From the IMG/VR virus record IMGVR_UViG_3300050034_000187, positions 103,866 to 167,865 of that record: 64,000 bases of DNA; one strand, given 5' to 3'. Shown here piece after piece: positions 11,719 to 62,812 of the stretch (position 1 is the stretch's first letter; every line of letters begins with the position of its first letter). The position numbers were made by a program, and so were the translations under genes. The notes beneath the pieces are model-generated. The model had not been told where the DNA came from. It saw only the letters and a program-made list of their open reading frames with translations, and ran no database searches. This DNA comes from a virus.

Positions 11719-11994
11719 ATGAATATTCCCTATGATAAAAATAATAATATAATTCATGTGGGGGATTGGATTAAGACGAGAACCTTTGCATCTATATTAG
11801 GTCCAGATTCTAATCCAATTCTAGAAAGTGATTATATTATAACTCAAGTAATAGATATTATATTTAACGAATATATTTCAAAAACTGTGGTATATTTTGA
11901 TAATTTATTAGAAGCTTATGATGGAGCAAGAATATCAACTGCATGCGAAGTAATATCCAAAGAAGAAGCAATGCAATGGAAAATGGAAGCATGA
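11719..11994 (+). CDS. ME-tail family small protein (array A)
   Basis: DKNNNIIHVGD N-terminus; ISKEEAMQWKMEA tail. Confidence 0.8.
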   Translation: MNIPYDKNNNIIHVGDWIKTRTFASILGPDSNPILESDYIITQVIDIIFNEYISKTVVYFDNLLEAYDGARISTACEVISKEEAMQWKMEA

Positions 11995-12142
11995 CAGGAA
12001 ACCCGTAAAGATCTATACGAAAAACATGTCGGTCCTAGTTGTCTATAATAATTTACTACACAAGATATAGTGCTTTTAATATAACCAACCCATAATCTTT
12101 TTATATGATATTCGTCCAAAAAATAATTAATTAGGAGAAAGT

Positions 12143-12385
12143 ATGAATGTGATTAAAGATATGAATAGAGTAGAAATTCATATAGGAGATTATTTATGTA
12201 ATTTTGATGCATATTGTGCATATTGTGCATATGTAAAAGATATCGAGGAAGAGGATGACGGAATTCTGCTGCACACTAATTTAAGTTATGTAATATTATA
12301 TGCATGGAAATATAACAATTATGAATTAAAAAATACTATCAAAATATCTGAAGAAGAATATTTGCAATATGTGATGGAGAAATAA
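12143..12385 (+). CDS. ME-tail family small protein (array A)
   Basis: DMNRVEIHIGD; ISEEEYLQYVMEK. Confidence 0.8.
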   Translation: MNVIKDMNRVEIHIGDYLCNFDAYCAYCAYVKDIEEEDDGILLHTNLSYVILYAWKYNNYELKNTIKISEEEYLQYVMEK

Positions 12386-12387
12386 CT

Positions 12388-12651
12388 ATGCGCAAAGTAT
12401 ATGATGTCAAGGGAGAAGAAATTCATATTGGTGATTATTTTTGGCAAGTTCTTAATTGTTTAACTCAGGAGCATGATATGTATGTCTACAAACTCCTTGA
12501 CTGGAAAAATGCCGCGATTGACGGAGAGTATCAACTTCGTTATGTTGGTAAAGTAAATGGAAATGATATCACATTATCATGCACACTAAGTTGGACAGAT
12601 ATTTTAAAATTATCAGAAGAAGAAACCTTGCAATATGTGATGGAGTTATAA
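12388..12651 (+). CDS. ME-tail family small protein (array A)
   Basis: DVKGEEIHIGD; LSEEETLQYVMEL. Confidence 0.8.
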   Translation: MRKVYDVKGEEIHIGDYFWQVLNCLTQEHDMYVYKLLDWKNAAIDGEYQLRYVGKVNGNDITLSCTLSWTDILKLSEEETLQYVMEL

Positions 12652-12653
12652 TT

Positions 12654-12896
12654 ATGAGAAACGTATATGACAAAAATGGTGTTGAAATTCATAATGGAGA
12701 TTTTCTTTTATATTCTTATAAATTAGAGAGTGCGGTATATGCTGTGGTAGAAATGAGAATGATTAATTCTAGCAGCATATGCGTTGCCAACAATGATTAT
12801 CAAGGATTGTATGCGGTTTTATGTAATAATTATAATCTTGAAAATACTTGTAAAATAAGTGAAGAAGAATATTTACAATACTTAATGGAGGAATGA
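12654..12896 (+). CDS. ME-tail family small protein (array A)
   Basis: DKNGVEIHNGD; ISEEEYLQYLMEE. Confidence 0.8.
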   Translation: MRNVYDKNGVEIHNGDFLLYSYKLESAVYAVVEMRMINSSSICVANNDYQGLYAVLCNNYNLENTCKISEEEYLQYLMEE

Positions 12897-13156
12897 TAAT
12901 GATTAAAGTATATGATAAATCTGGTGATGAAATCAATAATGGTGATTTTCTGATATGCAAAGATAAAGGCGGCGAAGAATATTTTGCAGTCACCGATATA
13001 CAGGAACCAAAAGCCATTGATGGAAGTATTTTGATTTCTAAAAATGATTTATATAGTTTGAATGCAATTCCTTCAGAAACTTCAGAAAATTATAAATTAC
13101 GAACTACATATAAAATAAGTGAAGACGAATATCTGCAATATATTATGGAGAAATAA
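12893..13156 (+). CDS. ME-tail family small protein (array A)
   Basis: DKSGDEINNGD; ISEDEYLQYIMEK. Confidence 0.8.
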   Translation: MIMIKVYDKSGDEINNGDFLICKDKGGEEYFAVTDIQEPKAIDGSILISKNDLYSLNAIPSETSENYKLRTTYKISEDEYLQYIMEK

Positions 13157-13352
13157 CTATGCGCAAAATATATGATAAATCTGGCAGATGATGGTACTAA
13201 GTATTTTTTGGATTCTGAGAATGTTGCGGTGATCACGGCGGACGAGTATTATGAAAATGTAGCTTCCTTGCAAAAGGTGGCAACATTTTAATATAATTTT
13301 CTTGCGTTTTCAACAACAATGTTGTATAATTATTTTATTGATTGGAGAGAAC

Positions 13353-13553
13353 ATGACGATTCATCGGATGACGCAGCTTACCACGGTTTATGATTATTTC
13401 AAGACGAAGGCAGAACGTATTCATAAGACTGCCTATAATCAGAGGATGATTGGAAATGTTGGCTTTGCAGATGAACGCGAATCTCGTGCCAATCGCTATG
13501 ATAGGATTGCCGGAAAGATTCTTCATCGTCTTGAGACTGATATTGTAGAATAA
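13353..13553 (+). CDS. Hypothetical protein
   Basis: Promoter-like TTGCGT..TATAAT and GGAG RBS precede the ATG. Confidence 0.6.
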   Translation: MTIHRMTQLTTVYDYFKTKAERIHKTAYNQRMIGNVGFADERESRANRYDRIAGKILHRLETDIVE

Positions 13554-15091: not shown

Positions 15092-15508
15092 ATGAATATT
15101 AAATATAAGTCTAACAACAATATTGTCTATTCCTGCAAATATCATGTAGTCTGGTGTCCTAAGTATCGTAGGAAGGTTTTGACTGGCAAAATTGAAGTTC
15201 GTTTGAAAGAATTAATACAAGAAACATGTATTGAACTTCAATCAGAATTAATTGAACTAGAAATAATGTCAGACCATGTACATCTTCTTATAGAGGTTGA
15301 TCCTCAATTTGGAGTCCATAAAGTCATTAAAGTCATTAAAGCCATTAAAGGTAAAACATCAAGAATACTCAGAAAGGAGTTTCCAATACTAACATCCAAA
15401 ATTCCTACATTATGGACAAACTCATATTTTATATCTACCGTTGGTGGTGCGCCATTAGAAATAGTTAAGCAATATATTGAGAATCAGAAAACATCAGGAA
15501 GGAAGTGA
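15092..15508 (+). CDS. tnpA: IS200/IS605 HUH (Y1) transposase
   Basis: YHVVWCPKYRR, DHVHLL, LWTNSYF and YIENQ. Confidence 0.95.
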   Translation: MNIKYKSNNNIVYSCKYHVVWCPKYRRKVLTGKIEVRLKELIQETCIELQSELIELEIMSDHVHLLIEVDPQFGVHKVIKVIKAIKGKTSRILRKEFPILTSKIPTLWTNSYFISTVGGAPLEIVKQYIENQKTSGRK

Positions 15509-15512
15509 TAAT

Positions 15513-16610
15513 ATGCAGATAACAACACAAGTCAAACTACTTCCAACTCCCGAACAAATACTCTTGATTAATAGCACCATGCAAGAGTATATCAGTACTG
15601 CCAACAACATAGTTAATGATTATGTTGTTGGTGACAAAGGAACAAAGCATACATCTAAAACCGTTATTGCTAACTTGCCAAGTGCCTTGAAGAACCAAGC
15701 CATTCAAGATGCTAAAAGTATTTTCAAGAAGTACACTAAGAAGCTGAAAGCTAATGAAAAGAAAGAAACTGACAAACAAAAAATCATCAAAGTTCCAATT
15801 CTCAAAAAGCCTATAGCCGTATGGAATAATCAGAACTATGCTATCAAATTTAGCTATATAACCTTTCCTGTTTGGCTTAATGGCAAGTCCACTAGAATTT
15901 TAGTTAAAGCCGTCATAACAGACCATCAAGCGAATCTAATAACCAATAAACTAGGCACTCTACGAATAACTAAAAAGTTAGGGAAGTATATTGCCCAAAT
16001 TGCCGTTGAAGTTGAACCAATACTATCTACTGGAACTATCGCTATGGGAATAGACTTAGGCTTGAAGATACCTGCTGTAGCGGTAACTGAGAGCGGTAAG
16101 ACTAAATTCATTGGCAATGGTCGGCAGAATAAATACATGAAACGTAAAAATCGTGCTACTCGTAAAAAACTAGGCAAGTTGAAGAAACAAAAAGCAATCA
16201 ACAAACTAGATAACAAAGAACAACGATGGATGCAAGATGCCGACCATAAAGTAAGTCGTCAATTGGTCAATTTCGCAGTAACTAATAATGTTGCAGTAAT
16301 TCGACTAGAAAAACTATCTGGCATACGTCAGACGGCAAGAACAAGCCGTAAAAACGCAAAGAATCTTCACACATGGTCATTCTACCGATTAGCTAATTTT
16401 ATCGAATATAAGGCAATTTTAGAGGGTATTAAGGTTGAATATGTCAATCCTAAATATACTAGTCAGACCTGTCCTGCCTGTGGTGAAAAAAATAAGGCTA
16501 ATGATAGAAAGTATAAGTGTGGATGCGGTTATAAGAAACACCGCGACATGGTGGGTGCAATCAATATCATTTCTGCACCTGTGGTAGATGGTAAAAGTCT
16601 ATCAGCCTAG
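15513..16610 (+). CDS. tnpB: RNA-guided endonuclease TnpB
   Basis: GIDLG, RLEKL and HRD catalytic triad; zinc finger CPACG. Confidence 0.95.
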   Translation: MQITTQVKLLPTPEQILLINSTMQEYISTANNIVNDYVVGDKGTKHTSKTVIANLPSALKNQAIQDAKSIFKKYTKKLKANEKKETDKQKIIKVPILKKPIAVWNNQNYAIKFSYITFPVWLNGKSTRILVKAVITDHQANLITNKLGTLRITKKLGKYIAQIAVEVEPILSTGTIAMGIDLGLKIPAVAVTESGKTKFIGNGRQNKYMKRKNRATRKKLGKLKKQKAINKLDNKEQRWMQDADHKVSRQLVNFAVTNNVAVIRLEKLSGIRQTARTSRKNAKNLHTWSFYRLANFIEYKAILEGIKVEYVNPKYTSQTCPACGEKNKANDRKYKCGCGYKKHRDMVGAINIISAPVVDGKSLSA

Positions 16611-27377: not shown

Positions 27378-29358
27378 AACGTTGAATAGCGAGTTGAAGA
27401 ATTACCAGCATGCCTATTATGCTGGTAATCCCCTTGTTTCCGATGCAGAATATGATCAAAAAGAACAGCAACTTATTTCTTTGATCAAAAGCAATCCCCA
27501 ATATTCTAATATTGCCACGGTTCTATATACTGTTGGAACTAAGGATAGCTCTGGCCGAATTCCGCATACCCGTCCAATGAAGTCTATCGAAAATCATTAT
27601 ACCAAAGAGTCTGCGGTTGATGAAGCTCGGACATATGGCAAAATTGTTTTGGTTGAGCAAAAGCGAGATGGTATATCCAACGAAATTACCTACGTTGACG
27701 GGGATCTTATTCAATCTGTCACGCGAGGAGATGGCGCAGCAGGAGAAGATCAAACTCTCCAAACAAAGGCTTGCAAATTGATTCCGCAACATATCAATTC
27801 TCCCGTACACATTTTAAAAGTGCGCGGAGAAATGGTGATGCGCAAGGATGAATTGGAACGTATCAATGCTTTGCAAGAAGCCAAGGGCCTTCCTGCATAT
27901 GCCAATACTCGCAATCTGGTTGCTGGTACATTGAAAAATAAAGATACTAGGATTATATCTGAACGAAACATTTTTTTGATGCCGTGGGATGTATACTCTC
28001 CTAATGAAGATGATACTTTGCCAGATAGCGCATATGAAAGAATGCTTCTTTTGGAATCGCTCGGTTTTCCAAAGTATCAGGGATTCATTGCACACAATAT
28101 CAATGAGATTGAACCATTGATTGATAGGGTTCTGAAGTTCAATGAGACTGATTCCATCCAGAATGATGGCGTTGTAATTAAGACTGATTCTCATAAGCTT
28201 CGTAATGTACTTGGTGTAAAAACGAAATTTACAAACTTTCAGTGCTGCTATAAAAATCAGCACATTAGTGCAGAAACCACCATTCTTGGCATTGAATGGG
28301 GGGTTGGTCGGCAAGGAAAAGTTACGCCGGTATTATTGATTGATCCTATTGATTTGGGTGGAGCAATCACTTCTCGGGCAACCGGAAACAACGTTACTTG
28401 GATGAATGCTCTTGGTATTCAAAATGGATCGGTGGTAAGCGTGTGCCGCAGTGGAGAAGTAATTCCGATGGTGACCGAAGTTATCGATAATTCGCATGCT
28501 ACTCCCTTTGATATTCCAGAAGTATGCCCTGCCTGTGGAAATAAACTGGAAGTGAATTGCGATAATGGAATTACAATTCTATTCTGCCGCAATTCTTTAT
28601 GTGAAGGAAAAGCAGCAGAAACATTTTATTACATTGCAGATCGTGCTACTCTGGAAATTGATAATCTTGGAATTGAAATGGCAAAAGAATTGATCGAACA
28701 TCATATTACTAGTTTAAGTGATCTATTTGAGTTTGCGAATGTATCAATTAATGCTCCAGCAACTTATTTTAAGAACACCTTGCAGTTTCGTTCAGGGGCG
28801 AATGTAGTAAAAATGGTCAAGTCTATTCAAGATGCAAAGACTAGAGATTGGGATAAGTGGTTTGCTGCATTTGGTATTCCAATGGTTGGTCATACTCTTG
28901 GAAAAGTGATTGCTACAAAGTTGAATCTGCAAAGTGAGGATATGCAAGATCTTTGTGAGAAGATTCTAACTATTCAAGATGGGCAGATTGATGGTCTTGG
29001 AGTAGTTAAATTGCAATCATTGCGTACTTGGGCGAATGATGAAAAGAATGTTGCACTTTGCATTGCTCTTTATCATGATGGCGTGCGCCCACAACCATTA
29101 ACTAACAAGGAGAAAACTATGGATGGAAAATTGAATGATATTACGTTTTGTATTACCGGAACATTCAAGGAAACCTTTGGTTCTAGAACCGTTATTACTG
29201 GGCAGCTAGAGGCCCTTGGCGCGAAGTCTGTTTCTTCGGTGACCAAAGCTTGCAACCTATTGATCGCCGGAGACAAGGTGGGCTCAAAACTTTCAAAAGC
29301 TGAGAAGCTTGGAATCAAGATTGTGGGTGAAGAATGGCTGAGTTCGGCGCTGGACTAG
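27361..29358 (+). CDS. ligA: NAD-dependent DNA ligase
   Basis: SDAEYD, EQKRDG, VTRGDG, VRGE, NTRN, DGVVIK, Zn finger and BRCT GSKLSKA. Confidence 0.95.
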   Translation: MKELIETLNSELKNYQHAYYAGNPLVSDAEYDQKEQQLISLIKSNPQYSNIATVLYTVGTKDSSGRIPHTRPMKSIENHYTKESAVDEARTYGKIVLVEQKRDGISNEITYVDGDLIQSVTRGDGAAGEDQTLQTKACKLIPQHINSPVHILKVRGEMVMRKDELERINALQEAKGLPAYANTRNLVAGTLKNKDTRIISERNIFLMPWDVYSPNEDDTLPDSAYERMLLLESLGFPKYQGFIAHNINEIEPLIDRVLKFNETDSIQNDGVVIKTDSHKLRNVLGVKTKFTNFQCCYKNQHISAETTILGIEWGVGRQGKVTPVLLIDPIDLGGAITSRATGNNVTWMNALGIQNGSVVSVCRSGEVIPMVTEVIDNSHATPFDIPEVCPACGNKLEVNCDNGITILFCRNSLCEGKAAETFYYIADRATLEIDNLGIEMAKELIEHHITSLSDLFEFANVSINAPATYFKNTLQFRSGANVVKMVKSIQDAKTRDWDKWFAAFGIPMVGHTLGKVIATKLNLQSEDMQDLCEKILTIQDGQIDGLGVVKLQSLRTWANDEKNVALCIALYHDGVRPQPLTNKEKTMDGKLNDITFCITGTFKETFGSRTVITGQLEALGAKSVSSVTKACNLLIAGDKVGSKLSKAEKLGIKIVGEEWLSSALD

Positions 29359-42886: not shown

Positions 42887-42897
42887 AAATAGTAGAG

Positions 42898-42941: not shown

Positions 42942-42942
42942 C

Positions 42943-45621: not shown

Positions 45622-46058
45622 TGGAATATAAATGTAGAAATGGATTTATGAATATTGGTGACTGGATGGGAACCTTGGGATCATCCTATTATGATGCGGG
45701 TGGGCAAGTCGTGGATTTTTGCTGGAAGTATGGTCCATTGTATGCCGATATTCAAGATCTACGAGGAACCGTATATTGGAGTAATATATATTTTTCTAAC
45801 TTATGGAAATTTGAAAATAAAGTAGAATTCGATAATTGGAAAAATAATAGGATGCCGGAGTCATTTGACTTGAATGGAATGACTTTTAAAATTGGAGATT
45901 ATTTTTCTCAGGGAGAAGTAGTGGGAAAGAAAATTGATATTATTTATCTGCTTCCAGATAAATCGTATGCAATAGGTCACGCAATTCCATTTAATATAGA
46001 TAATTCTGTTAGAAGGGCAACAGACGAAGAAATATTGCAATATACAATGGAGCAATAA
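45621..46058 (+). CDS. ME-tail family protein with two domains (array C)
   Basis: Two IGD modules; TDEEILQYTMEQ. Confidence 0.8.
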   Translation: MEYKCRNGFMNIGDWMGTLGSSYYDAGGQVVDFCWKYGPLYADIQDLRGTVYWSNIYFSNLWKFENKVEFDNWKNNRMPESFDLNGMTFKIGDYFSQGEVVGKKIDIIYLLPDKSYAIGHAIPFNIDNSVRRATDEEILQYTMEQ

Positions 46059-46059: not shown

Positions 46060-46290
46060 ATGAATTATAAAGTTGGAGAGTATTATACTTTGATGAATCC
46101 AGCTAGACAGCGGGATGATAGAATATGGGAAATTGTTAATATAAATGGCACTCGCGTTTATATTAAATTAGTAATGATTGGCGGCGGAATGGTAAGTTGG
46201 GGGACTTCTCAAAGAGTATCAATAAAATATATGAATAGGTATGAATTGATTTCAAAAGAAGAAGTTATGCAAGAAATCATGGAAAAATAA
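46060..46290 (+). CDS. ME-tail family small protein (array C)
   Basis: YKVGE; ISKEEVMQEIMEK. Confidence 0.8.
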   Translation: MNYKVGEYYTLMNPARQRDDRIWEIVNINGTRVYIKLVMIGGGMVSWGTSQRVSIKYMNRYELISKEEVMQEIMEK

Positions 46291-46291: not shown

Positions 46292-46492
46292 ATGGGAAGA
46301 AATAATATTCAATTACATGTTGGCGACTATGTTATGGAAACCTTTTGTGGAAGAATAATTGATATTGGGAGGTTAAGCAGCATTGATACCAGAGACGGTG
46401 GTATTGGATTTTGCGGTAAGCAGATTGTAATATTGGGGATGACAGAAAAAATAAGCGAAGAAGAATATCTACAATATGTTATGGAGAGATAA
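46292..46492 (+). CDS. ME-tail family small protein (array C)
   Basis: LHVGD; ISEEEYLQYVMER. Confidence 0.8.
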   Translation: MGRNNIQLHVGDYVMETFCGRIIDIGRLSSIDTRDGGIGFCGKQIVILGMTEKISEEEYLQYVMER

Positions 46493-46729
46493 ATGAGACA
46501 TAGATGTCAAAATGGATTAATTGGCGTGGGAGATTATGTAGTAATTCGCAAAACGCATGGATTCGGCCATGGGAAAGTGACTGGATTTTCTCAAGCAAGC
46601 AGCCTATGGGGACATGCATGGAAAGCTACGATAGAAGGTTATGATAAACCAAACAATTGGGGATTCTGCTGTCTTGCAAAAAAATTTAATAGTGACGAGG
46701 AAATTATACAATTTATTATGGAGCAATGA
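46493..46729 (+). CDS. ME-tail family small protein (array C)
   Basis: IGVGD; SDEEIIQFIMEQ. Confidence 0.8.
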   Translation: MRHRCQNGLIGVGDYVVIRKTHGFGHGKVTGFSQASSLWGHAWKATIEGYDKPNNWGFCCLAKKFNSDEEIIQFIMEQ

Positions 46730-46730: not shown

Positions 46731-46964
46731 ATGAAATTTAAAGTAGATGATTTAATTCGTGATGATAATGATATTAGCAGAATATGGAAAATTATCGGAG
46801 TATATCCAATGGATAAATCTTATAATACTATTCTATATATGCTGTCGGGACATATGATTGCATGGGGAGAAGATTATCCACAAAACGTATTGGCGTCCTT
46901 TCTCGAAGAAGATTTTAATGTATTGTCCAATGAAGAAATTATGCAATATATTATGGAGCAATAA
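46731..46964 (+). CDS. ME-tail family small protein (array C)
   Basis: MKFKVDD; LSNEEIMQYIMEQ. Confidence 0.8.
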   Translation: MKFKVDDLIRDDNDISRIWKIIGVYPMDKSYNTILYMLSGHMIAWGEDYPQNVLASFLEEDFNVLSNEEIMQYIMEQ

Positions 46965-46965: not shown

Positions 46966-47232
46966 ATGAAATTTAAAGTTGGTGATTATATTAGAAATGT
47001 AGATAGCACCATTGATGATAGAGTATGGAAAATAATAGCATTGGCTTTTGATGAAAATCAATATGTATTAGACTTAAAATTTTTTGTAAATATTGCAATT
47101 CCGTATTCTTACAGCATTATTGGTGATTGCTCCTTAAAGCCATTTGTTAGCTATGGTGAAGTTATACTGACAGACCGTACCATGGAAAAAGTATCAGATG
47201 AAGAAATATTGCAATTGGAAATGGAGCAATAA
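46966..47232 (+). CDS. ME-tail family small protein (array C)
   Basis: MKFKVGD; VSDEEILQLEMEQ. Confidence 0.8.
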   Translation: MKFKVGDYIRNVDSTIDDRVWKIIALAFDENQYVLDLKFFVNIAIPYSYSIIGDCSLKPFVSYGEVILTDRTMEKVSDEEILQLEMEQ

Positions 47233-47474
47233 TGAAATTTAAAGTTGGTGATATAATTTGGTGGAAAGATCATTCTGATGCTGATGATTGTCGTATTTGG
47301 AAAATTGTTGAAATATTAAAACATGGTGAATATATGATTGTTATATATCGAAGAATGTCTGGAGATTATCCAAGTTATGAAGAGTTGAGGTTATTTAAAT
47401 TAACTTCGGACATAGCTGGTGGGATGGAAAAAGTATCATCGGAAGAAATTATGCAACTTGACATGGAATTATAA
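47232..47474 (+). CDS. ME-tail family small protein (array C)
   Basis: MKFKVGD; VSSEEIMQLDMEL. Confidence 0.8.
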   Translation: MKFKVGDIIWWKDHSDADDCRIWKIVEILKHGEYMIVIYRRMSGDYPSYEELRLFKLTSDIAGGMEKVSSEEIMQLDMEL

Positions 47475-51432: not shown

Positions 51433-51667
51433 TGAAAATTTATTGTGCTGGATGACTATATTGAAGTTGTCCAGCATAATAAATTACTTGTCAGATGTGC
51501 GCGGCTTAAATAATTTAATATTTAACCTCGTCGGCAAGAATTCTCCCACCTCAATGAGTCTCAACGAATAGGTGGGAGATGAATTGCCGTCCTTACTTAT
51601 GTTGTAATTGCTAATACTTCCCCTTCATGATATAATCAGTAGTATAACGATGAATGGAGGAAATACA

Positions 51668-52069
51668 ATGGATTTAGACAACAATAATCATTCAGTATTC
51701 TTGATGTATTATCATCTAGTCTTTGTCGTAAAGTACCGTAGAAAAGTTATTGACGATACTGTTTCTTCTAGCCTAAAAGGAATATTTGAGCGCATATCAC
51801 CAAACTACAATATCTCCTTACAAGAATGGAATCACGACAAAGATCATGTTCATGTACTGTTCAAGGCTCACCCTAATACCGAGTTATCAAAATTCATCAA
51901 CTCCTATAAGAGTGCTTCATCACGATTGATTAAGAAAGAGTATCCTCAAATTCGTAAATCATTGTGGAAAGAGTACTTTTGGTCAAGAAGTTTTTGTTTA
52001 CTTACTACTGGTGGCGCGCCTATTGACGTTGTGAAGAGATATATCGAAAGCCAAGGTGAGAAGTTATGA
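51668..52069 (+). CDS. tnpA: IS200/IS605 transposase
   Basis: YHLVFVVKYRR, DHVHVL, FWSRSF and YIESQ. Confidence 0.95.
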   Translation: MDLDNNNHSVFLMYYHLVFVVKYRRKVIDDTVSSSLKGIFERISPNYNISLQEWNHDKDHVHVLFKAHPNTELSKFINSYKSASSRLIKKEYPQIRKSLWKEYFWSRSFCLLTTGGAPIDVVKRYIESQGEKL

Positions 52070-53139
52070 TTAAGGCTTTCAAGTACCGCATATACCCAAA
52101 CAATGAGCAACGTGAATATTTTGCTAAGACGTTTGGTTGTACTAGATTCGTGTATAATCGGATGTTGCATGACAAGATCGAACATTACAAAACTACTGAG
52201 CAAACTCTAAAGAATACACCAGCACAATATAAGGATGAATTCCCTTGGCTAAAAGAAGTGGACAGCCTAGCACTTGCTAATGCTCAAATGAATTTAGAAA
52301 AGGCTTATAAAAACTTCTTTCGAGATAAAAGTGTTGGTTTTCCAAAATTCAAGAGCAAAAAGAATAATCACCGTAGTTATACCACCAATAACCAGAAGGG
52401 TACTGTGTCGATTGAGAATAGGCATATCAAACTACCTAAACTAAAATCAATGGTCAGAATTAAGCAACATAGGTTATTTGATGGTTTGATAAAGTCTTGC
52501 ACTGTCTCGCAAACTCCAAGTGGTAAATACTTTGTATCAATATTGGTTGAATGTGAGATTGAGAAACTACCACAATTAGAAACTAAAGTGGGTATTGATG
52601 TTGGTATAAAAACTTTTGCCTTTATGTCCAATGGTAAAGAAATTGCAAATCCTAAGCACCTCAGAAAGTCAGAAAAGCGACTTGCTAAACTACAAAAAGA
52701 CCTGTCCAGAAAACAAAAAGGCAGTCGCAATCGTGCCAAGGCTAGAATCAAAGTTGCTACACTACATGAGAAAATAAGCAACCAAAGACTTGATTTCCTA
52801 CACAAAATATCTTTTGAAATTATCCGCGATAACCAAGCAATAGTTCTCGAAGATTTGAAAATCAAGAACATGGTCAAAAACCATAAGCTGGCAAAATCCA
52901 TCTCAGAAGTGTCATGGGGAATGTTTAGAGCAATGATTGAATATAAGGCTGAATGGTACGGTAGAGAGGTTATTATTGCGCCTCCCAATTATGCCAGTAG
53001 CCAACTTTGTTCTGAATGTGGCAATAAATCGAGTCAAACAAAAGATTTGTCTTGCAGAACTTATATGTGTCCCGTATGTGGTTTAGAGATTGATCGGGAC
53101 TATAATGCAAGCCTAAATCTACTAAAGTTAGCTGTGTAA
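52066..53139 (+). CDS. tnpB: TnpB
   Basis: AFKYRIYP, GIDVG, LEDL, DRDYNA and a zinc finger. Confidence 0.95.
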   Translation: MIKAFKYRIYPNNEQREYFAKTFGCTRFVYNRMLHDKIEHYKTTEQTLKNTPAQYKDEFPWLKEVDSLALANAQMNLEKAYKNFFRDKSVGFPKFKSKKNNHRSYTTNNQKGTVSIENRHIKLPKLKSMVRIKQHRLFDGLIKSCTVSQTPSGKYFVSILVECEIEKLPQLETKVGIDVGIKTFAFMSNGKEIANPKHLRKSEKRLAKLQKDLSRKQKGSRNRAKARIKVATLHEKISNQRLDFLHKISFEIIRDNQAIVLEDLKIKNMVKNHKLAKSISEVSWGMFRAMIEYKAEWYGREVIIAPPNYASSQLCSECGNKSSQTKDLSCRTYMCPVCGLEIDRDYNASLNLLKLAV

Positions 53140-53255
53140 ATACAAGATATATAGCTAATCGGGATAGGACATATCCTTAGAGCTTGGTAATTATGCTGGC
53201 GTTAGTCGGTACGTCCCAAGAAGCCCCCACCTCTTAGGCGGTGGGAGTATGTCAC

Positions 53256-53321
53256 AGGAAGTATTCGTGGATATAATATGCTATTAAGAGAAGAAGCACT
53301 GCAATATAAACTGGAGTTATA
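53256..53321 (+). pseudogene. 3' remnant of an ME-tail gene disrupted by the IS
   Basis: GSIRGYNMLLREEALQYKLEL*; decayed 5' part (DYIEVV) near 51453. Confidence 0.6.
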
Positions 53322-53323
53322 AA

Positions 53324-53578
53324 ATGGACGAATATAAAATTGGAGATTATATTGAAGTTATCAAAGACAATGATGAAATTATGATTTGTATAATTGATAA
53401 CATATATAGTGAAGAAATTCATGCTATGATTCTAGGTAGGTATCGCGACGATAGTTATGGGTGGATACTGCCCATTAATAAAGGATCTCTTTTTGATAGA
53501 CGCTTCTTTTCGTACCAAACAAAATCATATAGAAAATTATCAAATGAAGAGATTTTGCAATGGAAAATGGAGTTATAA
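53324..53578 (+). CDS. ME-tail family small protein (array D)
   Basis: YKIGD; LSNEEILQWKMEL. Confidence 0.8.
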   Translation: MDEYKIGDYIEVIKDNDEIMICIIDNIYSEEIHAMILGRYRDDSYGWILPINKGSLFDRRFFSYQTKSYRKLSNEEILQWKMEL

Positions 53579-53579: not shown

Positions 53580-53891
53580 ATGAAAAGTTATCCGCATGGA
53601 ATTAATCCATATTATGCATGGAACGGAGATTATTTACAAATTGGTGATATGGTGCAAGTTTTGGGAGGAATTGGGAAAATTGTTGATATATATCCATATG
53701 GAAATTACAGCAATGCAAAGTTGGATACTCTTGATGATCAAAAATCGGCGGCAGAAATTGTAGTAAAACTTGAACATACTTCTTGGTTGCCCGTTGGAGC
53801 AATGCTTCATAGAAATTATAGACTTGAAACCAGTGATTATATAAGGAAAGTATCGCAAGAAGAAGTTATGCAATATATTATGGAATTGTAA
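53580..53891 (+). CDS. ME-tail family small protein (array D)
   Basis: AWNGDYLQIGD; VSQEEVMQYIMEL. Confidence 0.8.
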   Translation: MKSYPHGINPYYAWNGDYLQIGDMVQVLGGIGKIVDIYPYGNYSNAKLDTLDDQKSAAEIVVKLEHTSWLPVGAMLHRNYRLETSDYIRKVSQEEVMQYIMEL

Positions 53892-53900: not shown

Positions 53901-54173
53901 ATGGTTAATGTTAATACTGGCAGAAATTTTAAAACTTACATTGCATGGAATGGTGATGAAGTAAATGTAGGAGATTACATCAAATATCAAAGATTGTTTC
54001 CTTGCGCCAAAGACTCGGAATCTTTATATATAAACAAAGTGGATTATTTTTATGAAAATCATAAGTTTGCTTCAATTGATAATGGAAAACACATAGTAGA
54101 CCTCGATAGTTCCGATAAGTATTTGGGGAAAGCATCAAAAGAAGAATACCTACAATATATCATGGAGTTGTGA
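53901..54173 (+). CDS. ME-tail family small protein (array D)
   Basis: AWNGDEVNVGD; SKEEYLQYIMEL. Confidence 0.8.
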   Translation: MVNVNTGRNFKTYIAWNGDEVNVGDYIKYQRLFPCAKDSESLYINKVDYFYENHKFASIDNGKHIVDLDSSDKYLGKASKEEYLQYIMEL

Positions 54174-54174: not shown

Positions 54175-54426
54175 ATGGACGAATATAAAATTGGAGATTA
54201 TTTGGAAGTTATCAAAGACAATGATGAAATTATGATTTGTATAATTGATAGAATCGATGACAAAGATATTATTACCGTTCCGTTTGATAAAGTCAATTGT
54301 TATCAGAATGTTTGGCTTCTTCCTCTATATTTGTCTAAACTCACTAATGCAATGTTGGGATATATTACGAAAGCATATCGAAAATTATCAAATGAAGAAG
54401 TATTGCAATGGAAAATGGAGCAATAA
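54175..54426 (+). CDS. ME-tail family small protein (array D)
   Basis: YKIGD; LSNEEVLQWKMEQ. Confidence 0.8.
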   Translation: MDEYKIGDYLEVIKDNDEIMICIIDRIDDKDIITVPFDKVNCYQNVWLLPLYLSKLTNAMLGYITKAYRKLSNEEVLQWKMEQ

Positions 54427-54430: not shown

Positions 54431-54700
54431 ATGGTGAGCGCATGGACCGGAGAAAAATTAGAAATCAATGATATAGTACAGGTTGATGGTGGAGTTGGAA
54501 TAATTCAACAAATTTCCACTAGGAATACTGCGCTGGCGGTAGCATCGGATTATATTGTGGTTAAATTATTGGTTAAATTTAAAGTAAATGACTATCCAGA
54601 CTATCCAACAACAGTCAGACGAAATTATACTGTTAAATCAAATGATTTTGTAAGAAAATTATCAAATGAAGAATTACTTCAACTTCAAATGGAGCAATAA
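54431..54700 (+). CDS. ME-tail family small protein (array D)
   Basis: AWTGEKLEIND; LSNEELLQLQMEQ. Confidence 0.8.
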   Translation: MVSAWTGEKLEINDIVQVDGGVGIIQQISTRNTALAVASDYIVVKLLVKFKVNDYPDYPTTVRRNYTVKSNDFVRKLSNEELLQLQMEQ

Positions 54701-54931
54701 ATGAAATATGCAAAAGGTGATTATATTGAAGTTACCCCCGAGGATGGAAAAATATTCGTGGGGAAAATTTCTTCAATAGATTCTATTCGATTTTATATTA
54801 AAAGCGGTCCATCTCATACTCAATGGTTCTTGCCCTTAAATAAGTTGCATCTAAGAAATCGTAATTATAATACCAAAGCATATCGAAAATTATCAAATGA
54901 AGAAGTATTGCAATGGAAAATGGAATTATAA
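54701..54931 (+). CDS. ME-tail family small protein (array D)
   Basis: YAKGD; LSNEEVLQWKMEL. Confidence 0.8.
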   Translation: MKYAKGDYIEVTPEDGKIFVGKISSIDSIRFYIKSGPSHTQWFLPLNKLHLRNRNYNTKAYRKLSNEEVLQWKMEL

Positions 54932-55018
54932 TTATCTTGCAATCTGTGTTACAACCGTTCATCACAAATATAATATTTAGTATTAAAATGTATAAATTTA
55001 TATGAGATAAATAAACAT

Positions 55019-55588
55019 ATGAGATTAAAAGAATATGCAAAATTACAAGGTATTACTTATCAAACCGCGTGGAATTGGTTCAAATCTGGATTAATTTTGA
55101 ATGCCTATCAAATGCCAACAGGCACAATTATTGTTCCCATTGACAATGACATCACAAATAAAGAAAAAATAATCAATGTTATCTATTGTCGAGTTAGCAA
55201 TCAATCAAGAAAAAAAGAACTAGAATACCAAGTTAAACGAGTTGAAGATTATTGCATAGCAAATGGAATGACAATTTCAAGAGTATATAAAGAAGTAGCA
55301 TCTGGAATGAATGATAATAGGCTTCAATTATGGAAAATGATAAATTCGAAACCAACTACCATAATTGTGGAAAACAAAGATAGATTGACTCGATTTGGTT
55401 TTAGATATATTAAAAATTTACTAGAAAAACTAGATACAAAAATAATTGTAATTCATGAAGATGCCACCGATGAACAGGACTTAATTAAAGATTTGGTATC
55501 AATTATTACCAGTTTTTGTTGTAGATTATATGGTATGCGTCGTGGTTATAAAAAGGCGCAAGAAATAAAGAATACCGCCATTTCTTAA
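55019..55588 (+). CDS. tnpA: IS607 serine transposase
   Basis: MerR-like N-terminal HTH, YCRVS, EVASG, KDRLTRFG and RLYG. Confidence 0.93.
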   Translation: MRLKEYAKLQGITYQTAWNWFKSGLILNAYQMPTGTIIVPIDNDITNKEKIINVIYCRVSNQSRKKELEYQVKRVEDYCIANGMTISRVYKEVASGMNDNRLQLWKMINSKPTTIIVENKDRLTRFGFRYIKNLLEKLDTKIIVIHEDATDEQDLIKDLVSIITSFCCRLYGMRRGYKKAQEIKNTAIS

Positions 55589-55634
55589 ATGATAGTTTTT
55601 TATAAATTTATATAAATAGATATAGAAGAGAATA

Positions 55635-56936
55635 ATGTTACTTATTAGATCAACAAATCACAGCACGAAATATACCAATTCAGATAAGAAAAATAATCTG
55701 AAAGAATTTCTTATTGAATATACCAAAATAATTTGGTGGTTTGTTGACTATTTTTGGGATAATAAAATTATATGGAATAATAAAACACTTGATATTAAAA
55801 ATAATAAATTAGAGTGCCCAAAATTTATTTCAACTACAAATATTAAAGTTCCTTCGGAACTATCTGCTCGGGCGATTAAATTAGCAAGTAGTGCCGCGCT
55901 GGGTATTATTTCAAGCCGAATTGAAAAAAGAAAACGGCAATTTTATGTTCTTAATAAAAAACAACATCTGGATGATAAAGTAGCAAGTGCTAAAATTCAA
56001 TCTAAAATTGATAGCACACCATTAACTAAACCAGAAAGAATCAATAATAAGTTATTTGCTAATTTGGATAGTAATTGCTGTGATTTTCAAAATGAGCATA
56101 ATAAGAAATTTGATGGGTTCTTGGAATTAAAATCCATCTGGAAAACAAGACGAGGATTTAAAATTCGAATTCCAATTAAATTTACAAAGTGCAGTAATAA
56201 ATTTAAAAATAATAAATGGAATTTAAAAACTAGTTGGAATATTTCATTAGATCAAGTAACGGCTCGTTGGGAAAAAGATATTGCAATCTCCGTTGGTAAT
56301 AAAATTATAGGCGGAGATCAGGGTGCAACTACCTGCTTATCTCTATCCGATGGGCAAGTAACGGGTAAAAATAATGATGGTTATGACTTATCGTTCATTA
56401 TGAAAATACTATCAAGAAAGAAAAAAGGAAGTAAAGCATTTAAACGAGCCCAATGTCACCGAACAAATTATATTAATTGGAGTATTAAACAATTAGATTT
56501 TAGTAACATAAAAGAATTTAGATTAGAAAAATTGTTTCAAGTTAGAAAAGGAAGGAAAATTAGTTCTTTTCTAGGTAGTTGGACATATACCCAAATAAAT
56601 GAAGCTATTGTAAATTCCTGTGAATTACTTGGGGTCCAAGTAATATTGCAAGACTCGACTTATAGAAGTCAGCGGTGTTCTTCATGTGGGTGGGTTCAAA
56701 AATCCAATAGGAAGAGAAAGGAGTTTATATGCCATGCGTGCGGAGAAATTCATGATGCAGATATAAATGGCGCTCTTAATCATGTAGTTGACTTATATCA
56801 ACTCCCTACTTGGATTCGACAAAGGAAATTAAATATTGCTGGTTTTTATTGGTTAGAAACCGGAATATTTAATTCATTTGGTCGGGAGCTTACAGTCCCC
56901 GATGAATATAAAAATGCTTTATATTCATTTATATAA
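55635..56936 (+). CDS. tnpB: TnpB (IS607-associated)
   Basis: GGDQG, RLEKL, DADING and CSSCG/CHACG zinc finger. Confidence 0.9.
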   Translation: MLLIRSTNHSTKYTNSDKKNNLKEFLIEYTKIIWWFVDYFWDNKIIWNNKTLDIKNNKLECPKFISTTNIKVPSELSARAIKLASSAALGIISSRIEKRKRQFYVLNKKQHLDDKVASAKIQSKIDSTPLTKPERINNKLFANLDSNCCDFQNEHNKKFDGFLELKSIWKTRRGFKIRIPIKFTKCSNKFKNNKWNLKTSWNISLDQVTARWEKDIAISVGNKIIGGDQGATTCLSLSDGQVTGKNNDGYDLSFIMKILSRKKKGSKAFKRAQCHRTNYINWSIKQLDFSNIKEFRLEKLFQVRKGRKISSFLGSWTYTQINEAIVNSCELLGVQVILQDSTYRSQRCSSCGWVQKSNRKRKEFICHACGEIHDADINGALNHVVDLYQLPTWIRQRKLNIAGFYWLETGIFNSFGRELTVPDEYKNALYSFI

Positions 56937-56985
56937 AAAGCATTACTGTTAAAAGCTGTTATAATACAAATAGAAAGAAGGCAAA

Positions 56986-57396
56986 ATGCAAACTATTAAA
57001 ATGTATATGGCGTATGATATGGCAAGATTTTTACATAGGAATCAATTAGATAAAGCTGGTAAGAAATATTTTAATCATCCGCTGCGCGTTGCTGAAAAAG
57101 TAAAATCATATGGAGAATTATATTATGTTGCTGCCATACTCCATGACTGCGTAGAGGATACCTCGATAACCTTGAAAGATATTATATACTATTTCGGAGA
57201 AGATGTTGGAGAAATTGTAGATTGTATTAGTCGCAGGAACGGAGAAAAGTATATGGATTTTGTTGATCGATGCAAGAAGAATGAAATTGCAAAGATTATT
57301 AAACTAGCAGATATAGAAGACAATTCTGATCCGATTAGGAGGTTTGGCGATGATAAGAGTTATGCCTCGCTAATTAGTGAACTACTGCGACCATAA
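56986..57396 (+). pseudogene. HD-domain (RelA/SpoT hydrolase, Mesh1-like) gene with its 3' end displaced by an IS
   Basis: HRNQ.DKAG..Y..HPLRVA, LHDCVEDT and KLADIEDN; native tail NKYARARKRLTEELNV* at 58619-58668. Confidence 0.8.
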
Positions 57397-58562
57397 CGGG
57401 TAGCAGCTTCCTGCTTCATCGATACAACTTTCATATCTCCACAGGCATTTTTACTGGTGGCAATTCCTGCCATACCAATCTTTAAAATATTAACTGCTGC
57501 ATTATAATCGCGGTTTGCTACAAAACCACAAGCAGGGCATACATATTTCCTTTCGGAAAGAGGCATCTTTTGTTGACGGCCGCATTCGGAACATAATTGA
57601 GAGGAAGGTGCAAACCGAGCTATTTTATGCATTGCTCCACCTTTCCATTTCATCTTGTATTCCAAATATGTTATGAATTGACTCCAGCCGCAATCCGATA
57701 TTGCTTTTGCCAATTTGTGATTTTTTAACATGTTCTTTACAGCTAGGTCTTCTACAAATACATTGTCATTGCTTTTGGCTATCGAGCAACTACCTTTATG
57801 TAAGAAATCCTTTCTTTGAAATCTTGTTTTTCTATACATCTTTGCTAATTTAACTTTTGCTTTGCTATAATTATGACTTCCTTTTTTCTTTCTTGCTAAA
57901 TTTTGTTGCAATTTCTTTATTTTATCTTCTGAATTTCTTAGGTACTTTGGATTATCAATATATTCACTTTCTGAGGTAACCGCGAATGACTTAATTCCTA
58001 AGTCAATGCCCAAAGAGGTACTTTCTTTAACTTCTAATTGATATGAAATATCCGGTACTTCGGTTAAAATAGAAACGTACCATTGATCGATATATCTAGA
58101 AATAGTAATTGATTTCATAATACCAATTAATTCTCGATGTTTCTTAATTTTTATTTGACTTAATTTGGGAATTTTGATATACTTATCAAGTAAAGAAATA
58201 TGTTTTCCTACTTGAGGAATATAAATACCTGATTCATTGGAACCTTTCTTTTTAAAGTGGGGAAATCCCACGTCCATGCTTTTGCGATTCTTACAATAAG
58301 TTCGTAAGGATTGATCCAAGGATCTTCCTATGTATTGAAGAGAATGTGCAGGAGCATTTAACCAAGGATATTGAACTTTCAACGAAGGTAATTGCATATT
58401 TAATGCATATTTCCAAATAAATGTCTTATCTTTCTTATATTGCTCAATATTTTGCTCTAAGAATAGGTTCCAAATAAATCTGGTTTGTCCTAACCAATTG
58501 ATCAAGGCATTAGCTTGTTCTTTGTTTGGATAAATTCGATATTTGAATGCCCTGTTCATCAT
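57360..58562 (-). CDS. tnpB: TnpB
   Basis: AFKYRIYP, GIDLG, VEDL, NRDYNAA and a zinc finger; ORF reads through the right end. Confidence 0.95.
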   Translation of the reverse strand: MMNRAFKYRIYPNKEQANALINWLGQTRFIWNLFLEQNIEQYKKDKTFIWKYALNMQLPSLKVQYPWLNAPAHSLQYIGRSLDQSLRTYCKNRKSMDVGFPHFKKKGSNESGIYIPQVGKHISLLDKYIKIPKLSQIKIKKHRELIGIMKSITISRYIDQWYVSILTEVPDISYQLEVKESTSLGIDLGIKSFAVTSESEYIDNPKYLRNSEDKIKKLQQNLARKKKGSHNYSKAKVKLAKMYRKTRFQRKDFLHKGSCSIAKSNDNVFVEDLAVKNMLKNHKLAKAISDCGWSQFITYLEYKMKWKGGAMHKIARFAPSSQLCSECGRQQKMPLSERKYVCPACGFVANRDYNAAVNILKIGMAGIATSKNACGDMKVVSMKQEAATRYGRSSSLISEA

Positions 58563-59981: not shown

Positions 59982-60321
59982 AGCAGAATGGGAAGAAGAA
60001 GCAAAAAAGAATCTTCCTTCCATCATTAATGGAATGTCAATTGACGATGAGCAATGGTGGAAACTTCCAATTTCAAAAACCAATTTCAGATTAACACAGA
60101 TGGGATATACTCGATTTAAAATTGCCATTCCAAAGTATTACGAATATACCGGAATAAATATGGGAAGACTTAATGGAAATTCTATTTTAGGATTATCCAG
60201 AATAACTTCTCCTTTTTATCTTAGTTCACAAAAATTTTGTACTTGGTCCGAGGATGATGCACTTATGTTTTCAATGCTCGGGGAAAATATGGATGAATTT
60301 ATCCTATCTTACATATCATAG
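59968..60321 (+). CDS. Hypothetical phage protein
   Basis: WW...RLT..G pattern; operon packing. Confidence 0.6.
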   Translation: MALSRAEWEEEAKKNLPSIINGMSIDDEQWWKLPISKTNFRLTQMGYTRFKIAIPKYYEYTGINMGRLNGNSILGLSRITSPFYLSSQKFCTWSEDDALMFSMLGENMDEFILSYIS

Positions 60322-60334
60322 GAGGCTATCTCAC

Positions 60335-60808
60335 ATGAAGTCATTTAGTGAGTACCTTGTTGAAGTTGAAAAAGAATCAAAAGGAACATTTGCTGGATTA
60401 AAATTATCTCCGCAAAGTTCTTTAAAATTATATTCTGCTCTTTCCGATTTGGAAATTGAAAATAAATTAAATGCAGAACAATATCACTGTACTATTATTT
60501 GCTCTAAAAAATATGTTCCTGAATTAGAAGGAATCAAACCAAATTTACCAATTAGCTCTCAATGTCTTGATTGGGATATGTTGGGAGATTGCTTAGTTAT
60601 TACTTTAAAAGGAAAGCATCTTTATAAGCTATATGAGGAATGTATTAATATGGGTGCAGTGAGTGATTTTGAAGAATACATTCCTCATATCACAATTGCT
60701 CCTCATTATGAAGGGGAACTTCCAACTATTCCATGTCCAAAAATTAAACTACTATTTGATGAATTCGCGGTTGATGAATTAAATGACGAGGTATATAAAA
60801 ATGAGTAA
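60335..60808 (+). CDS. acb1: 2H phosphodiesterase, Acb1/T4 gp57B-like
   Basis: HCTI..S and DFEEYIPHITI (two HxT motifs); GGAGG RBS. Confidence 0.8.
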   Translation: MKSFSEYLVEVEKESKGTFAGLKLSPQSSLKLYSALSDLEIENKLNAEQYHCTIICSKKYVPELEGIKPNLPISSQCLDWDMLGDCLVITLKGKHLYKLYEECINMGAVSDFEEYIPHITIAPHYEGELPTIPCPKIKLLFDEFAVDELNDEVYKNE

Positions 60809-61619
60809 AGCTCCAATTGTAATTTGTGCTATTATGAAGTTAGAAGGGAAATATATACGAGAATGGTGTGCATTCCATCGCATTGCTGGTGTAGATAAAA
60901 TTTATATCTATAATAACAATGTAGAAAATGATTGGGAGGAAGCTCTACAGCCGTTTCTTGAGGATGGTTTTGTTGAAGTGATGGATTGGCCAATGGAATC
61001 TCCTTGCCAACTACAAGCGTATCAGAACTTCATTAATAAGCATATGGGGGAAGATATCTGGGCAGCATTTATTGATTGTGATGAATTTTTATTTGCTCCG
61101 CAACATTCAACTCTGCATGCTTATTTTGATCAAATTCCAAAATCAATTGCGATTGGCGCTAATTGGTGTTGTTTTGGTTCCGGCGATCAAACTGAATATT
61201 CTCCTCAGCCGGTGATTGAAAGATTTGCATATCGGACTTGCGATAATGAATGGAATAATTCTCATATTAAAAGTATTATTCGAATGAATCAACAAGTACA
61301 ATTGCTAGGTACTCCTCATTTTTTTAATGTAGAAAATAAAACTTGGTCTACTTCTGGCAAAGAAATCAATGGACCTTTTTCTACGCATGATTCTTCATAC
61401 CTACGAATTAATCATTATAAAACCAAAAGTAAGCCTGAATTTATTGATCGTTGCAAAAAGGCCAAAAAAGCAGATATTCCAAATTATGTATTAAATTGGG
61501 AACATTATAATTCCGTTCAAGCAAAAGCGGTACATGATATTACTATTCAAAAATATCTTCCACAATTAAAAAAATATTTGGAAGAACTGAATTCAAAACA
61601 ATTAAATTTTAAATTCTAA
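60801..61619 (+). CDS. Glycosyltransferase (GT92/GT2-like)
   Basis: CAIMK.E..YI.EW..FH, FIDCDEF, KSI and INHY. Confidence 0.85.
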   Translation: MSKAPIVICAIMKLEGKYIREWCAFHRIAGVDKIYIYNNNVENDWEEALQPFLEDGFVEVMDWPMESPCQLQAYQNFINKHMGEDIWAAFIDCDEFLFAPQHSTLHAYFDQIPKSIAIGANWCCFGSGDQTEYSPQPVIERFAYRTCDNEWNNSHIKSIIRMNQQVQLLGTPHFFNVENKTWSTSGKEINGPFSTHDSSYLRINHYKTKSKPEFIDRCKKAKKADIPNYVLNWEHYNSVQAKAVHDITIQKYLPQLKKYLEELNSKQLNFKF

Positions 61620-61645
61620 AAGATGGGCAAATTGCCCATCTTTTT
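61618..61645 (+). terminator. Intrinsic terminator
   Basis: AAAAGATGGGC-aaatt-GCCCATCTTTTT. Confidence 0.8.
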
Positions 61646-61681
61646 CTTGCAATCAAGGTGAATCTATGATAATATTCAGAT

Positions 61682-61912
61682 ATGAAAACACCATCTGATC
61701 TTGATCCGTGGGGAGAGAATGCAAAAGATATTAATGGATTTCATGTGAAAAACGGATGTTTGGCGAGAGAACTTTCTACCGGCTTCTGCGGAAAAATGAA
61801 ATATGATTTCGAAGACAGCTATTGGGAATTAGATGGAGAAATTGTTGATCCCAAAGAGGTAGAAGTTATAACTGATCCCTATGAAATTCTAGCATTGGAG
61901 ATGGAACAATGA
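61682..61912 (+). CDS. ME-tail family small protein (array E)
   Basis: DINGFHVKNG; TDPYEILALEMEQ. Confidence 0.78.
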   Translation: MKTPSDLDPWGENAKDINGFHVKNGCLARELSTGFCGKMKYDFEDSYWELDGEIVDPKEVEVITDPYEILALEMEQ

Positions 61913-62166
61913 TAACTTATTGGCGTGATTTGCATCTGAAGAAAGGGATGTATATTGCCGCAGCCTTGCTTTTGGATGGCACGGTCCAAAGAATATACAA
62001 AGTTAAAAAAGTGGATAAAAGTGAAATATTATTGGAAAATATCCCTACCGGACTCAGCAAAGGAGAGAATATAATTACCGCAAAAACTTATTGGATTATT
62101 CACAAAAATTATTTCGTCAAGATTTTATCTGACGAAGACGTTCTTCAACTTCAAATGGAGCTATAA
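61909..62166 (+). CDS. ME-tail family small protein (array E)
   Basis: LSDEDVLQLQMEL. Confidence 0.78.
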   Translation: MITYWRDLHLKKGMYIAAALLLDGTVQRIYKVKKVDKSEILLENIPTGLSKGENIITAKTYWIIHKNYFVKILSDEDVLQLQMEL

Positions 62167-62167
62167 T

Positions 62168-62425
62168 ATGGAAGATTTTATGCGGCTTTCTGATAAAAAT
62201 GGAAATGACGTTCAAGAAGGAGACTATGTTCGCATCCAAACAAATTCCATATCAGGAACTTTAATTGTCACCACACAAAAAGTAGTTAGATCCTTCTGGG
62301 TGGATACAAAAACAATGGAACCAATTTGTTATATTAGAGATAAGAATTGGGAGCGAATAGATTCCAGCCGAATAGAACTTATAACTGATCCTTATGAAAT
62401 TTTGGCATTACAGATGGAGGAATAA
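62168..62425 (+). CDS. ME-tail family small protein (array E)
   Basis: DKNGNDVQEGD; TDPYEILALQMEE. Confidence 0.78.
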   Translation: MEDFMRLSDKNGNDVQEGDYVRIQTNSISGTLIVTTQKVVRSFWVDTKTMEPICYIRDKNWERIDSSRIELITDPYEILALQMEE

Positions 62426-62428
62426 TAT

Positions 62429-62812
62429 ATGCATGGCGATATAACTTTTAAAATTGGAGATCTTGCTGCTTCTTTTATCATTGATCCAGAAAATGAGGAA
62501 AAATGGCTTATCGTGGGAAAATTAATTAACGATGAAAAAGGGTGGAAAGTATATGATGTTCCAACAGGTTATGGAGATACCTCGATATTAAAGCAGAGAA
62601 AGGGGAGTTTTCGTACTATGATTCTTGATAAAAATGGAGTAGAATTTACTGAAGGATGCTGGTTAAAAGTGGACGGCAAGGAACCACAATTTGTGAAAGG
62701 AAAGAATATAGTCATGGATCTTTCGGAACTTGGAAATAATGAATATATAATCAACGGCATGGAAATCATTACCGATCCATCTGAAATTCTGGCGTTAGAA
62801 ATGGAACAATAA
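62429..62812 (+). CDS. ME-tail family protein with two domains (array E)
   Basis: FKIGD and DKNGVEFTEG; TDPSEILALEMEQ. Confidence 0.78.
   Translation: MHGDITFKIGDLAASFIIDPENEEKWLIVGKLINDEKGWKVYDVPTGYGDTSILKQRKGSFRTMILDKNGVEFTEGCWLKVDGKEPQFVKGKNIVMDLSELGNNEYIINGMEIITDPSEILALEMEQ

Follow-up and report, generated by a model that had tools for sequence, protein, structure and literature searches.

Why would a phage encode dozens of small proteins that diverge widely in sequence yet end in the same short tail? The question is raised by a 64,000-nucleotide stretch of DNA (termed here the window), bases 103,866–167,865 of the 195,761-base IMG/VR virus record IMGVR_UViG_3300050034_000187. An earlier note, based on the letters of the window, had described about 27 paralogs in five tandem arrays, with divergent cores and a common C-terminal tail, and had suggested that variable domains recognize different targets while the tail docks on one common hub. 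We see an even chance that the tail is such a docking tag, carried by variable barrels and directed at one common partner.

A record-wide family of small tailed proteins

Tails were detected with a position-weight matrix covering the last 14 residues of open reading frame (ORF) ends, applied to the whole record. Sixty-five ORF ends scored 20.9 or higher, compared to 0.6 for the next-best end, and no scoring site lay inside any ORF. In ten codon shuffles of the record (∼6,600 ORFs each), the top score was 3.8, and hits of at least 12 were seen in none of the ten. Adding three variant tails (TDPxEILALxMEx; window ends 61912, 62425 and 62812) gives 68 tails, all of them C-terminal (68/68), in 17 arrays across the record, every one on the + strand. 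The window holds 28 tails in five arrays (5, 4, 8, 7 and 4 tails); 27 belong to genes with a start codon and one to a start-less remnant. All five arrays thus lie where the earlier note had placed them, but the genome-wide tail-profile scan that it proposed reveals a family of which the window contains only a share.

The divergence of the cores is borne out by a median pairwise identity of 21%, versus 50% in the tails (59 of the 67 members with a start compared), and the KxGD-like start reported for most members is present in 23 of the 27 window genes. Every window tail (28/28) ends (M/L)-E-x-stop, so the register described before, with exactly one residue after the Glu, holds; the preceding residue, given as M, can also be L. 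Record-wide, M occupies position −3 in 65/68 tails and E occupies −2 in 67/68. The family is real and undescribed, while its mechanism is something we infer. A literature search returned no description of such a family, although supplements of PMC7824862 fall outside that search and may list it.

A profile built from 58 members and relatives matched ribosomal protein L24 (E = 2e-4) and the NusG KOW domain (E = 5e-4) over its first 45 positions, and the Gly that follows the first turn in KOW-type motifs is present in at least 90% of the 58 rows. The structural basis for the fold is a model of one member, 54701–54931, with a predicted local distance difference test score (pLDDT) of 89.5. It forms a five-stranded barrel (strands 8–13, 19–26, 30–35, 40–45 and 58–63), and the tail is a confidently placed helix (66–75, pLDDT 93–96). 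Most members are predicted to be KOW/SH3-type barrels plus a terminal helix. Foldseek searches of the PDB and of viral models gave weak matches to Tudor, Hfq and KOW folds (best E = 0.013, none at or below 0.001), and the ESM Atlas yielded nothing beyond unnamed viral clusters (at most 0.89). The tailed genes occupy ∼9% of the record, all of it given over to a single undescribed family; none of the 66 members tested scored over cut-off for a Pfam family, and PHROG matches were weak (at most 7/58 to a single unnamed family). Of the YopX/SH3-like start proposed in the earlier note, the SH3/KOW part agrees with both profile and model. The YopX family (PF09643) was rejected, having matched one of the 66 members below threshold (E = 0.0074; 16.7 bits versus a cut-off of 22.4).

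Array 1 comprises members at 11719–11994 (91 amino acids, tail ISKEEAMQWKMEA), 12143–12385 (80, tail ISEEEYLQYVMEK), 12388–12651 (87), 12654–12896 (80; the sole member with the weak YopX match) and 12899–13156 (85). By eye, a decayed further member, with a family-type start, an early stop and a worn tail, can be recognized at 13159–13291; it is outside the 28. Array 2 has members at 29334–29621 (95 amino acids), 29623–29898 (91) and 29900–30163 (87), followed by a frameshifted one with an intact tail (30165–30463), whose 3′ part is ORF 30218–30463. Array 3 consists of 45394–45621 (75), a two-domain member at 45621–46058 (145, with a good tail on the last domain only), 46060–46290 (76), 46292–46492 (66), 46493–46729 (78), 46731–46964 (77), 46966–47232 (88) and 47232–47474 (80). 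Array 4 opens with the start-less tail remnant (53206–53322), which lies downstream of an IS200/IS605 element and retains the GGAG of the next gene, and continues with members at 53324–53578 (84), 53580–53891 (103), 53901–54173 (90), 54175–54426 (83), 54431–54700 (89) and 54701–54931 (76, the modeled protein). Array 5 contains 61682–61912 (76, variant tail), 61909–62166 (85), 62168–62425 (85, variant tail) and a two-domain member at 62429–62812 (127, variant tail on the last domain only). All of these features are on the + strand.

Because several members are frameshifted or truncated, the sequences point to birth and death of copies. Mobile elements are found nearby. Three IS200/IS605-type elements with TnpB occupy 15092–16610, 51608–53139 and 57360–58562, the second immediately preceding array 4, whose first gene is truncated. 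A resolvase and TnpB element (54946–56947) is skipped by one contig from another sample and hence is probably a recent or polymorphic insertion. Contigs from RNA libraries overlap parts of three tailed genes, though these libraries may contain DNA. A second sample showed too few differences for calculation of the ratio of nonsynonymous to synonymous substitution rates.

Selection on the tail as protein and as ribosome-binding site

The tail falls into two halves, h-S/T-x-E-E-h (h, hydrophobic) followed by L-Q-Y/W-h-M-E-x-stop. A profile search of 1.84 billion proteins returned 133 matches, 44 of them from this record. Many of the others are long proteins with barrel repeats and then an internal K/R-A/L-S/T-x-E-E-V. 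Since the h-S/T-x-E-E-h motif is present inside these distant multi-repeat homologs, it appears to be an ancestral helix start, and it conforms to the helix capping-box pattern. Many long barrel-repeat proteins (P0030–P0133) end in a common motif of their own, E-L-I-A/T-P-V-E-x-R-F-D.

The second half behaves differently. In 81 internal helices of multi-repeat homologs, selected by the helix-start pattern, Ala and charged residues predominate at positions −7 to −2, whereas terminal tails have L/M, Q or L, Y/W, a hydrophobic residue, M/L and E at these positions. Homologous barrels manage without the surface formed by the distal tail. In all 4 two-domain members, a good tail occurs only at the end of the protein, the tail of the first domain being missing or decayed.

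The earlier note had also proposed a scan of relatives, and pattern scans do find the family in syntenic relatives (G018, G020/G021, G023 and G026) and in two unrelated small phages, G019 (3 members) and G022 (1 member). In metagenomes, the exact Q..ME tail pattern gave 2 matches, one due to chance and one a real array (L157; 6 profile matches, 7 by eye), and in viral contigs it gave 22 single matches and no arrays. The pattern EEAM..LE matched 9 proteins in bacterial and archaeal genomes, none of them a family member, and hence gave no indication of a host or a host mimic. The family was likewise found in 0/17 capsid-related records and in 0/3 complete ClpA-bearing records; 3 incomplete ones had weak matches confined to the N-terminal part.

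Comparison of 24 tails from fragments of G018, G020, G023 and G026 (7 rows with other endings dropped) reveals a consistent difference. These read A at −8 (17/24), M at −7, L at −6 (20/24) and L at −3 (22/24), where this record has Y/I/V, L, Q (63/67) and M (65/67), and the second half of the related tails takes the form A-M-L-W-M-L-E-x. A syntenic pair of proteins of 256 and 258 residues, only 24% identical, follows the same rule, each carrying the tail variant of its own genome. Judged by these sequences, the distal tail is genome-specific and appears to have shifted in concert between genomes.

A further point in favor of a tag is a G018 protein that also ends in MLEQ although it looks like a member of another family, whose usual ending is A-x-x-F-x-L-x-W-x. 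Arrays of small genes with this ending before the stop were found in 2/5 other jumbo records searched (G001:C1:157750-167369 and G029:C1:150773-168691; 13 and 10 matches, control 0). Their tails carry an AGGTGG Shine-Dalgarno-like sequence and ATGA overlaps, and the shared part lacks a Pfam family. These arrays suggest that group 2.2 jumbo phages have another repertoire of proteins with a shared tail.

Is the conserved unit the peptide or the DNA? Ser and Leu pairs in the tail share an identical codon in just 23% of cases, and synonymous codon use at E-10, E-9, S-12 and L-7 is near the genome average (GAG in 8/64 and 8/61 versus 19%). The only strong departure from genome usage concerns the codon of Glu-2, which is GAG in 49/67 tails compared to 19% in the genome, with E-10 and E-9 unbiased. 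GAG is found in 40/45 genes that have a start codon directly behind them and in 9/22 that do not (p = 7e-5). With GAG so much commoner in coupled than in uncoupled genes, the ATGGAG of the tail doubles as the Shine-Dalgarno sequence of the next gene, an overlap that the earlier note had missed. In the remaining 18/67 tails, Glu-2 is encoded by GAA, and 13 of these genes lack a coupled neighbor. Since tail codons vary synonymously and Glu-2 is kept as GAA, the distal tail is under selection at the protein level.

These same data bear on the idea that conservation acts on the DNA, with the tail region serving as a recombination or cassette end for gene shuffling and the peptide arising as a by-product. 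In its favor, the tail bears the next gene's Shine-Dalgarno sequence, and in one contig from another sample (depth 3.8) window position 54369 is joined to 54875 across two near-identical tail regions, with the intervening gene dropped. This junction may be either an array contraction or an assembly artefact. However, the free synonymous variation and the restriction of strong codon bias to Glu-2 largely refute a DNA cassette, and we regard it as very improbable.

A stronger competitor treats the tail as a structural helix of the domain, which packs on the barrel or links members into oligomers and has spread by lineage-specific duplication, with an ending fixed by the ribosome-binding site and with no outside hub. 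A number of observations favor it over a docking tag. The tail opens with an ordinary helix start, common to internal repeats of distant homologs, and this first half fits packing on the barrel, as does the confident placement of the whole tail helix in the model. A search of the record for small ORFs that have the family start but no tail gave one match, which was unrelated. The overlapping Shine-Dalgarno sequence would explain part of the fixed ending, given GAG in most coupled genes, and in the parallel family of G001 and G029, too, a Shine-Dalgarno-like sequence accompanies the terminal helix. Two relics of tails have outlasted their genes as ribosome-binding sites, namely the array 4 remnant and one just outside the window (L007:1301-1339; C1:168301). 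The latter lies upstream of the next member and has kept its GGAG and lost its stop; its gene has been replaced by a GC-rich, Cys-rich ORF. Two points count against a docking tag without bearing on the structural helix. Among related large-phage fragments, Glu-2 is found in 26/31 distinct matches, looser than in this record, and modeling of the three Cys-rich members, which have no homologs outside, did not establish a separate fold (pLDDT 61).

The distal half is harder to reconcile with a purely structural role. Its positions are conserved far above the cores and are polar in homologs, the first domains of fusions do without the helix, and three invariant polar residues (E-10, Q-6 and E-2) fall on one helix face. 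Met is kept at −3 even though Lys or Glu codons would, we reason, equal or better the Shine-Dalgarno match, and Glu-2 persists as GAA where there is no coupled gene. The earlier note had itself raised the alternative of a simple structural helix; this holds for the first half of the tail. Its modular tag is partly supported, in that the tail is terminal, selected as protein, hydrophobic in its distal half and absent from first domains. We rate a purely structural tail as possible but less probable than a docking tag, in which the distal tail would present an outward binding surface and the barrels would bind targets.

ClpA as a candidate partner

The major capsid protein of the record is 63–66% identical to those of Vibrio phage 2.275.O and GAP32-like phages, and on this basis the record appears to be a group 2.2 jumbo phage (Rak2/GAP32-like), possibly incomplete. 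Two sequencing runs that hold most of its DNA are labeled peat metagenome, and one of them may be the source. The methyltransferase and ClpX gave no useful clue to the host. Outside the window, the record codes for ClpX, ClpP, a ClpA-type ATPase, ClpS, Hsp20 and DnaJ. Other genes include an Acb1-family gene directed against cyclic-oligonucleotide-based antiphage signaling (anti-CBASS) at 60254–60808 of the window (PF23474, E = 1e-15) and one for an omega-like RNA polymerase protein at L005:12760-13101 (C1:88760-89101), which matches PF01192 over cut-off and has an ortholog in G018.

The earlier note had named the AAA ATPase at 62901 among possible hubs. This gene has an ortholog in G018 and adjoins 1/17 arrays; nothing ties it to the tail or singles it out. 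The more plausible partner would be the N-domain of the phage's own ClpA unfoldase, whose gene lies just upstream of the window (L006:11014-13227; ClpS is encoded at L005:6264-6578). In this scheme, a fast-evolving family of 68 small barrels would dock through the terminal helix on one partner, and the barrels, being variable, would bring a range of targets to the phage-made ClpAP protease. With each gene carrying the ribosome-binding site of the next, arrays could grow and shrink as modules.

Two lines of evidence point toward ClpA. The first is a likeness to ClpS. The aligned docking helix of this phage's ClpS reads EEYAQYL, and the tail consensus reads EEYLQYI. Among 63,004 windows of the proteome, the ClpS docking helix ranks first against tail positions −10 to −4, and longer windows rank 2 and 7. 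The second is a remodeled ClpA. In the portion of PMC12493166 drawn on here, E. coli ClpS residues Glu79, Glu82 and Lys84 contact ClpA residues Glu28/Thr81, Arg86 and Glu23, respectively. The motif T-x-x-L/I-E/D-R, which contains Arg86, is kept in 51/54 distinct phage ClpA sequences. The three that lack it (this record; L158, which is also the ClpA of family-bearing G026; and L161) form one clade with support of 100/100 in a tree of 25 of the 54 sequences, in which branches are long; outside this clade, the motif is kept in 51/51. The ClpA of family-bearing G023 also lacks the Arg86 motif. In other jumbo records, ClpS retains Glu82 and Lys84 in 3/3 cases examined (four loci exist).

Several points weaken the case for ClpA. 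The top-ranking ClpS window was picked after the match had been seen, although the Clp idea itself predates the match. In G018, ClpS does not match the tails of its own lineage (rank 1,342 of 54,273). This phage's ClpS is changed at the same contacts as its ClpA, and this by itself could account for the remodeled ClpA; the two proteins possibly form a private, host-insulated pair. The tail family and the remodeled ClpA co-occur in one clade and hence represent a single phylogenetic contrast. Finally, G022 (94% complete) carries one tailed member and has no ClpA and no ClpS, and G019 carries three and has no ClpA, which leaves room for a partner from the host or for none at all. We consider ClpA the best named candidate for the hub, with predicted binding that we hold to be doubtful. 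Equally tentative is the full scheme of programmable proteolysis, in which KOW/SH3 adaptors would copy the ClpS docking helix, plug into a remodeled ClpA N-domain and feed chosen host proteins, such as defense factors, to ClpP.

The Clp genes could also be read in another way, with the tail serving as an address or degradation label on the tailed proteins themselves, for turnover by Clp or a tail-specific protease or for packaging into the virion. Terminal degrons need a free, fixed end, which the tail would supply, and the phage owns parts of both ClpXP and ClpAP. Tailed genes lie on the same strand as replication genes, and a sigma70-like site is found within 190 nucleotides of the end of 11/17 arrays, versus 18/92 other genes, in a lenient scan. 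Yet the terminal degrons known for ClpXP and Prc are small and nonpolar, acidic ends are usually stabilizing, and the capsid targeting sequence of T4 sits N-terminally, in contrast to the C-terminal motif here. A label of this kind strikes us as improbable.

If the tail is a true docking tag, then a single pull-down would reveal the partner common to 68 uncharacterized proteins, and each barrel would lead to a host target. Were that partner ClpA, this would explain why group 2.2 jumbo phages have their own Clp machinery and would provide a handle of 12 residues with which proteins could be targeted for degradation in bacteria. Should the tail prove structural only, its overlap with the Shine-Dalgarno sequence still shows how arrays stay expressed through gene gain and loss.

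Comparison with known systems

In phage T4, a C-terminal motif that binds the sliding clamp is shared by DNA polymerase and other replication proteins. The present tail differs, being absent from the ends of both parts of the family B DNA polymerase, the single-stranded DNA-binding protein, the helicase and the primase; no further ORF end scores. The polymerase gene itself (window 41249–45350) is in two parts that flank an endonuclease-like ORF with NUMOD3, and its orthologs in G023 and G026 are longer, single ORFs. As for the barrels, the five-stranded model and the profile matches are shared with KOW/Tudor/Sm-type proteins (ribosomal L24, NusG KOW, Tudor and Hfq), from which the family is set apart by hypervariable cores and by an extra terminal helix outside the matched region.

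Three adaptor systems offer partial parallels. The tail core resembles, in register, the ClpA-docking helix of this phage's ClpS (for the ClpS structure, see PDB 1MBU). However, the members lack the ClpS fold (no match to PF02617 in 66 members) and the N-degron pocket, their helix is terminal, and the likeness fails in G018. SPO1 Gp53, as excerpted from PMC6873191, is a phage adaptor-like protein of host ClpCP that redirects the Clp protease by binding its ATPase, and hence is a precedent for such redirection by a phage protein. As characterized in that excerpt, it is a single 25-kDa protein that acts on a host enzyme through internal residues that are basic or hydrophobic, with no repertoire or terminal tag. 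The proposed logic is closest to that of poxviral ankyrin/F-box adaptors, which, in the portion of PMC9414399 considered, comprise numerous paralogs that combine a variable part for target binding with a common C-terminal dock for a degradation machine. Here there is no homology (no Pfam match to ankyrin repeats or F-box in the members) and no ubiquitin system, and docking is conjectural. If the proteolysis scheme is true, the family would be a prokaryotic counterpart to viral F-box repertoires.

Among described phenomena, the closest is the lineage-specific expansion of paralogs in jumbo phages. According to the sections of Iyer et al. 2021 (PMC7824862) that bear on this, group 2.2 phages carry ClpP, ClpS, ClpA and ClpX, and Bacillus phage G has ∼35 copies of a zinc ribbon as a lineage-specific expansion. 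What the two cases share is a large phage carrying small, diverged paralogs by the dozen. Unlike the zinc ribbons of phage G, for which those sections describe no such tag, the family reported here is built on a KOW/SH3-type barrel, numbers 68 copies and bears a strictly terminal tag.

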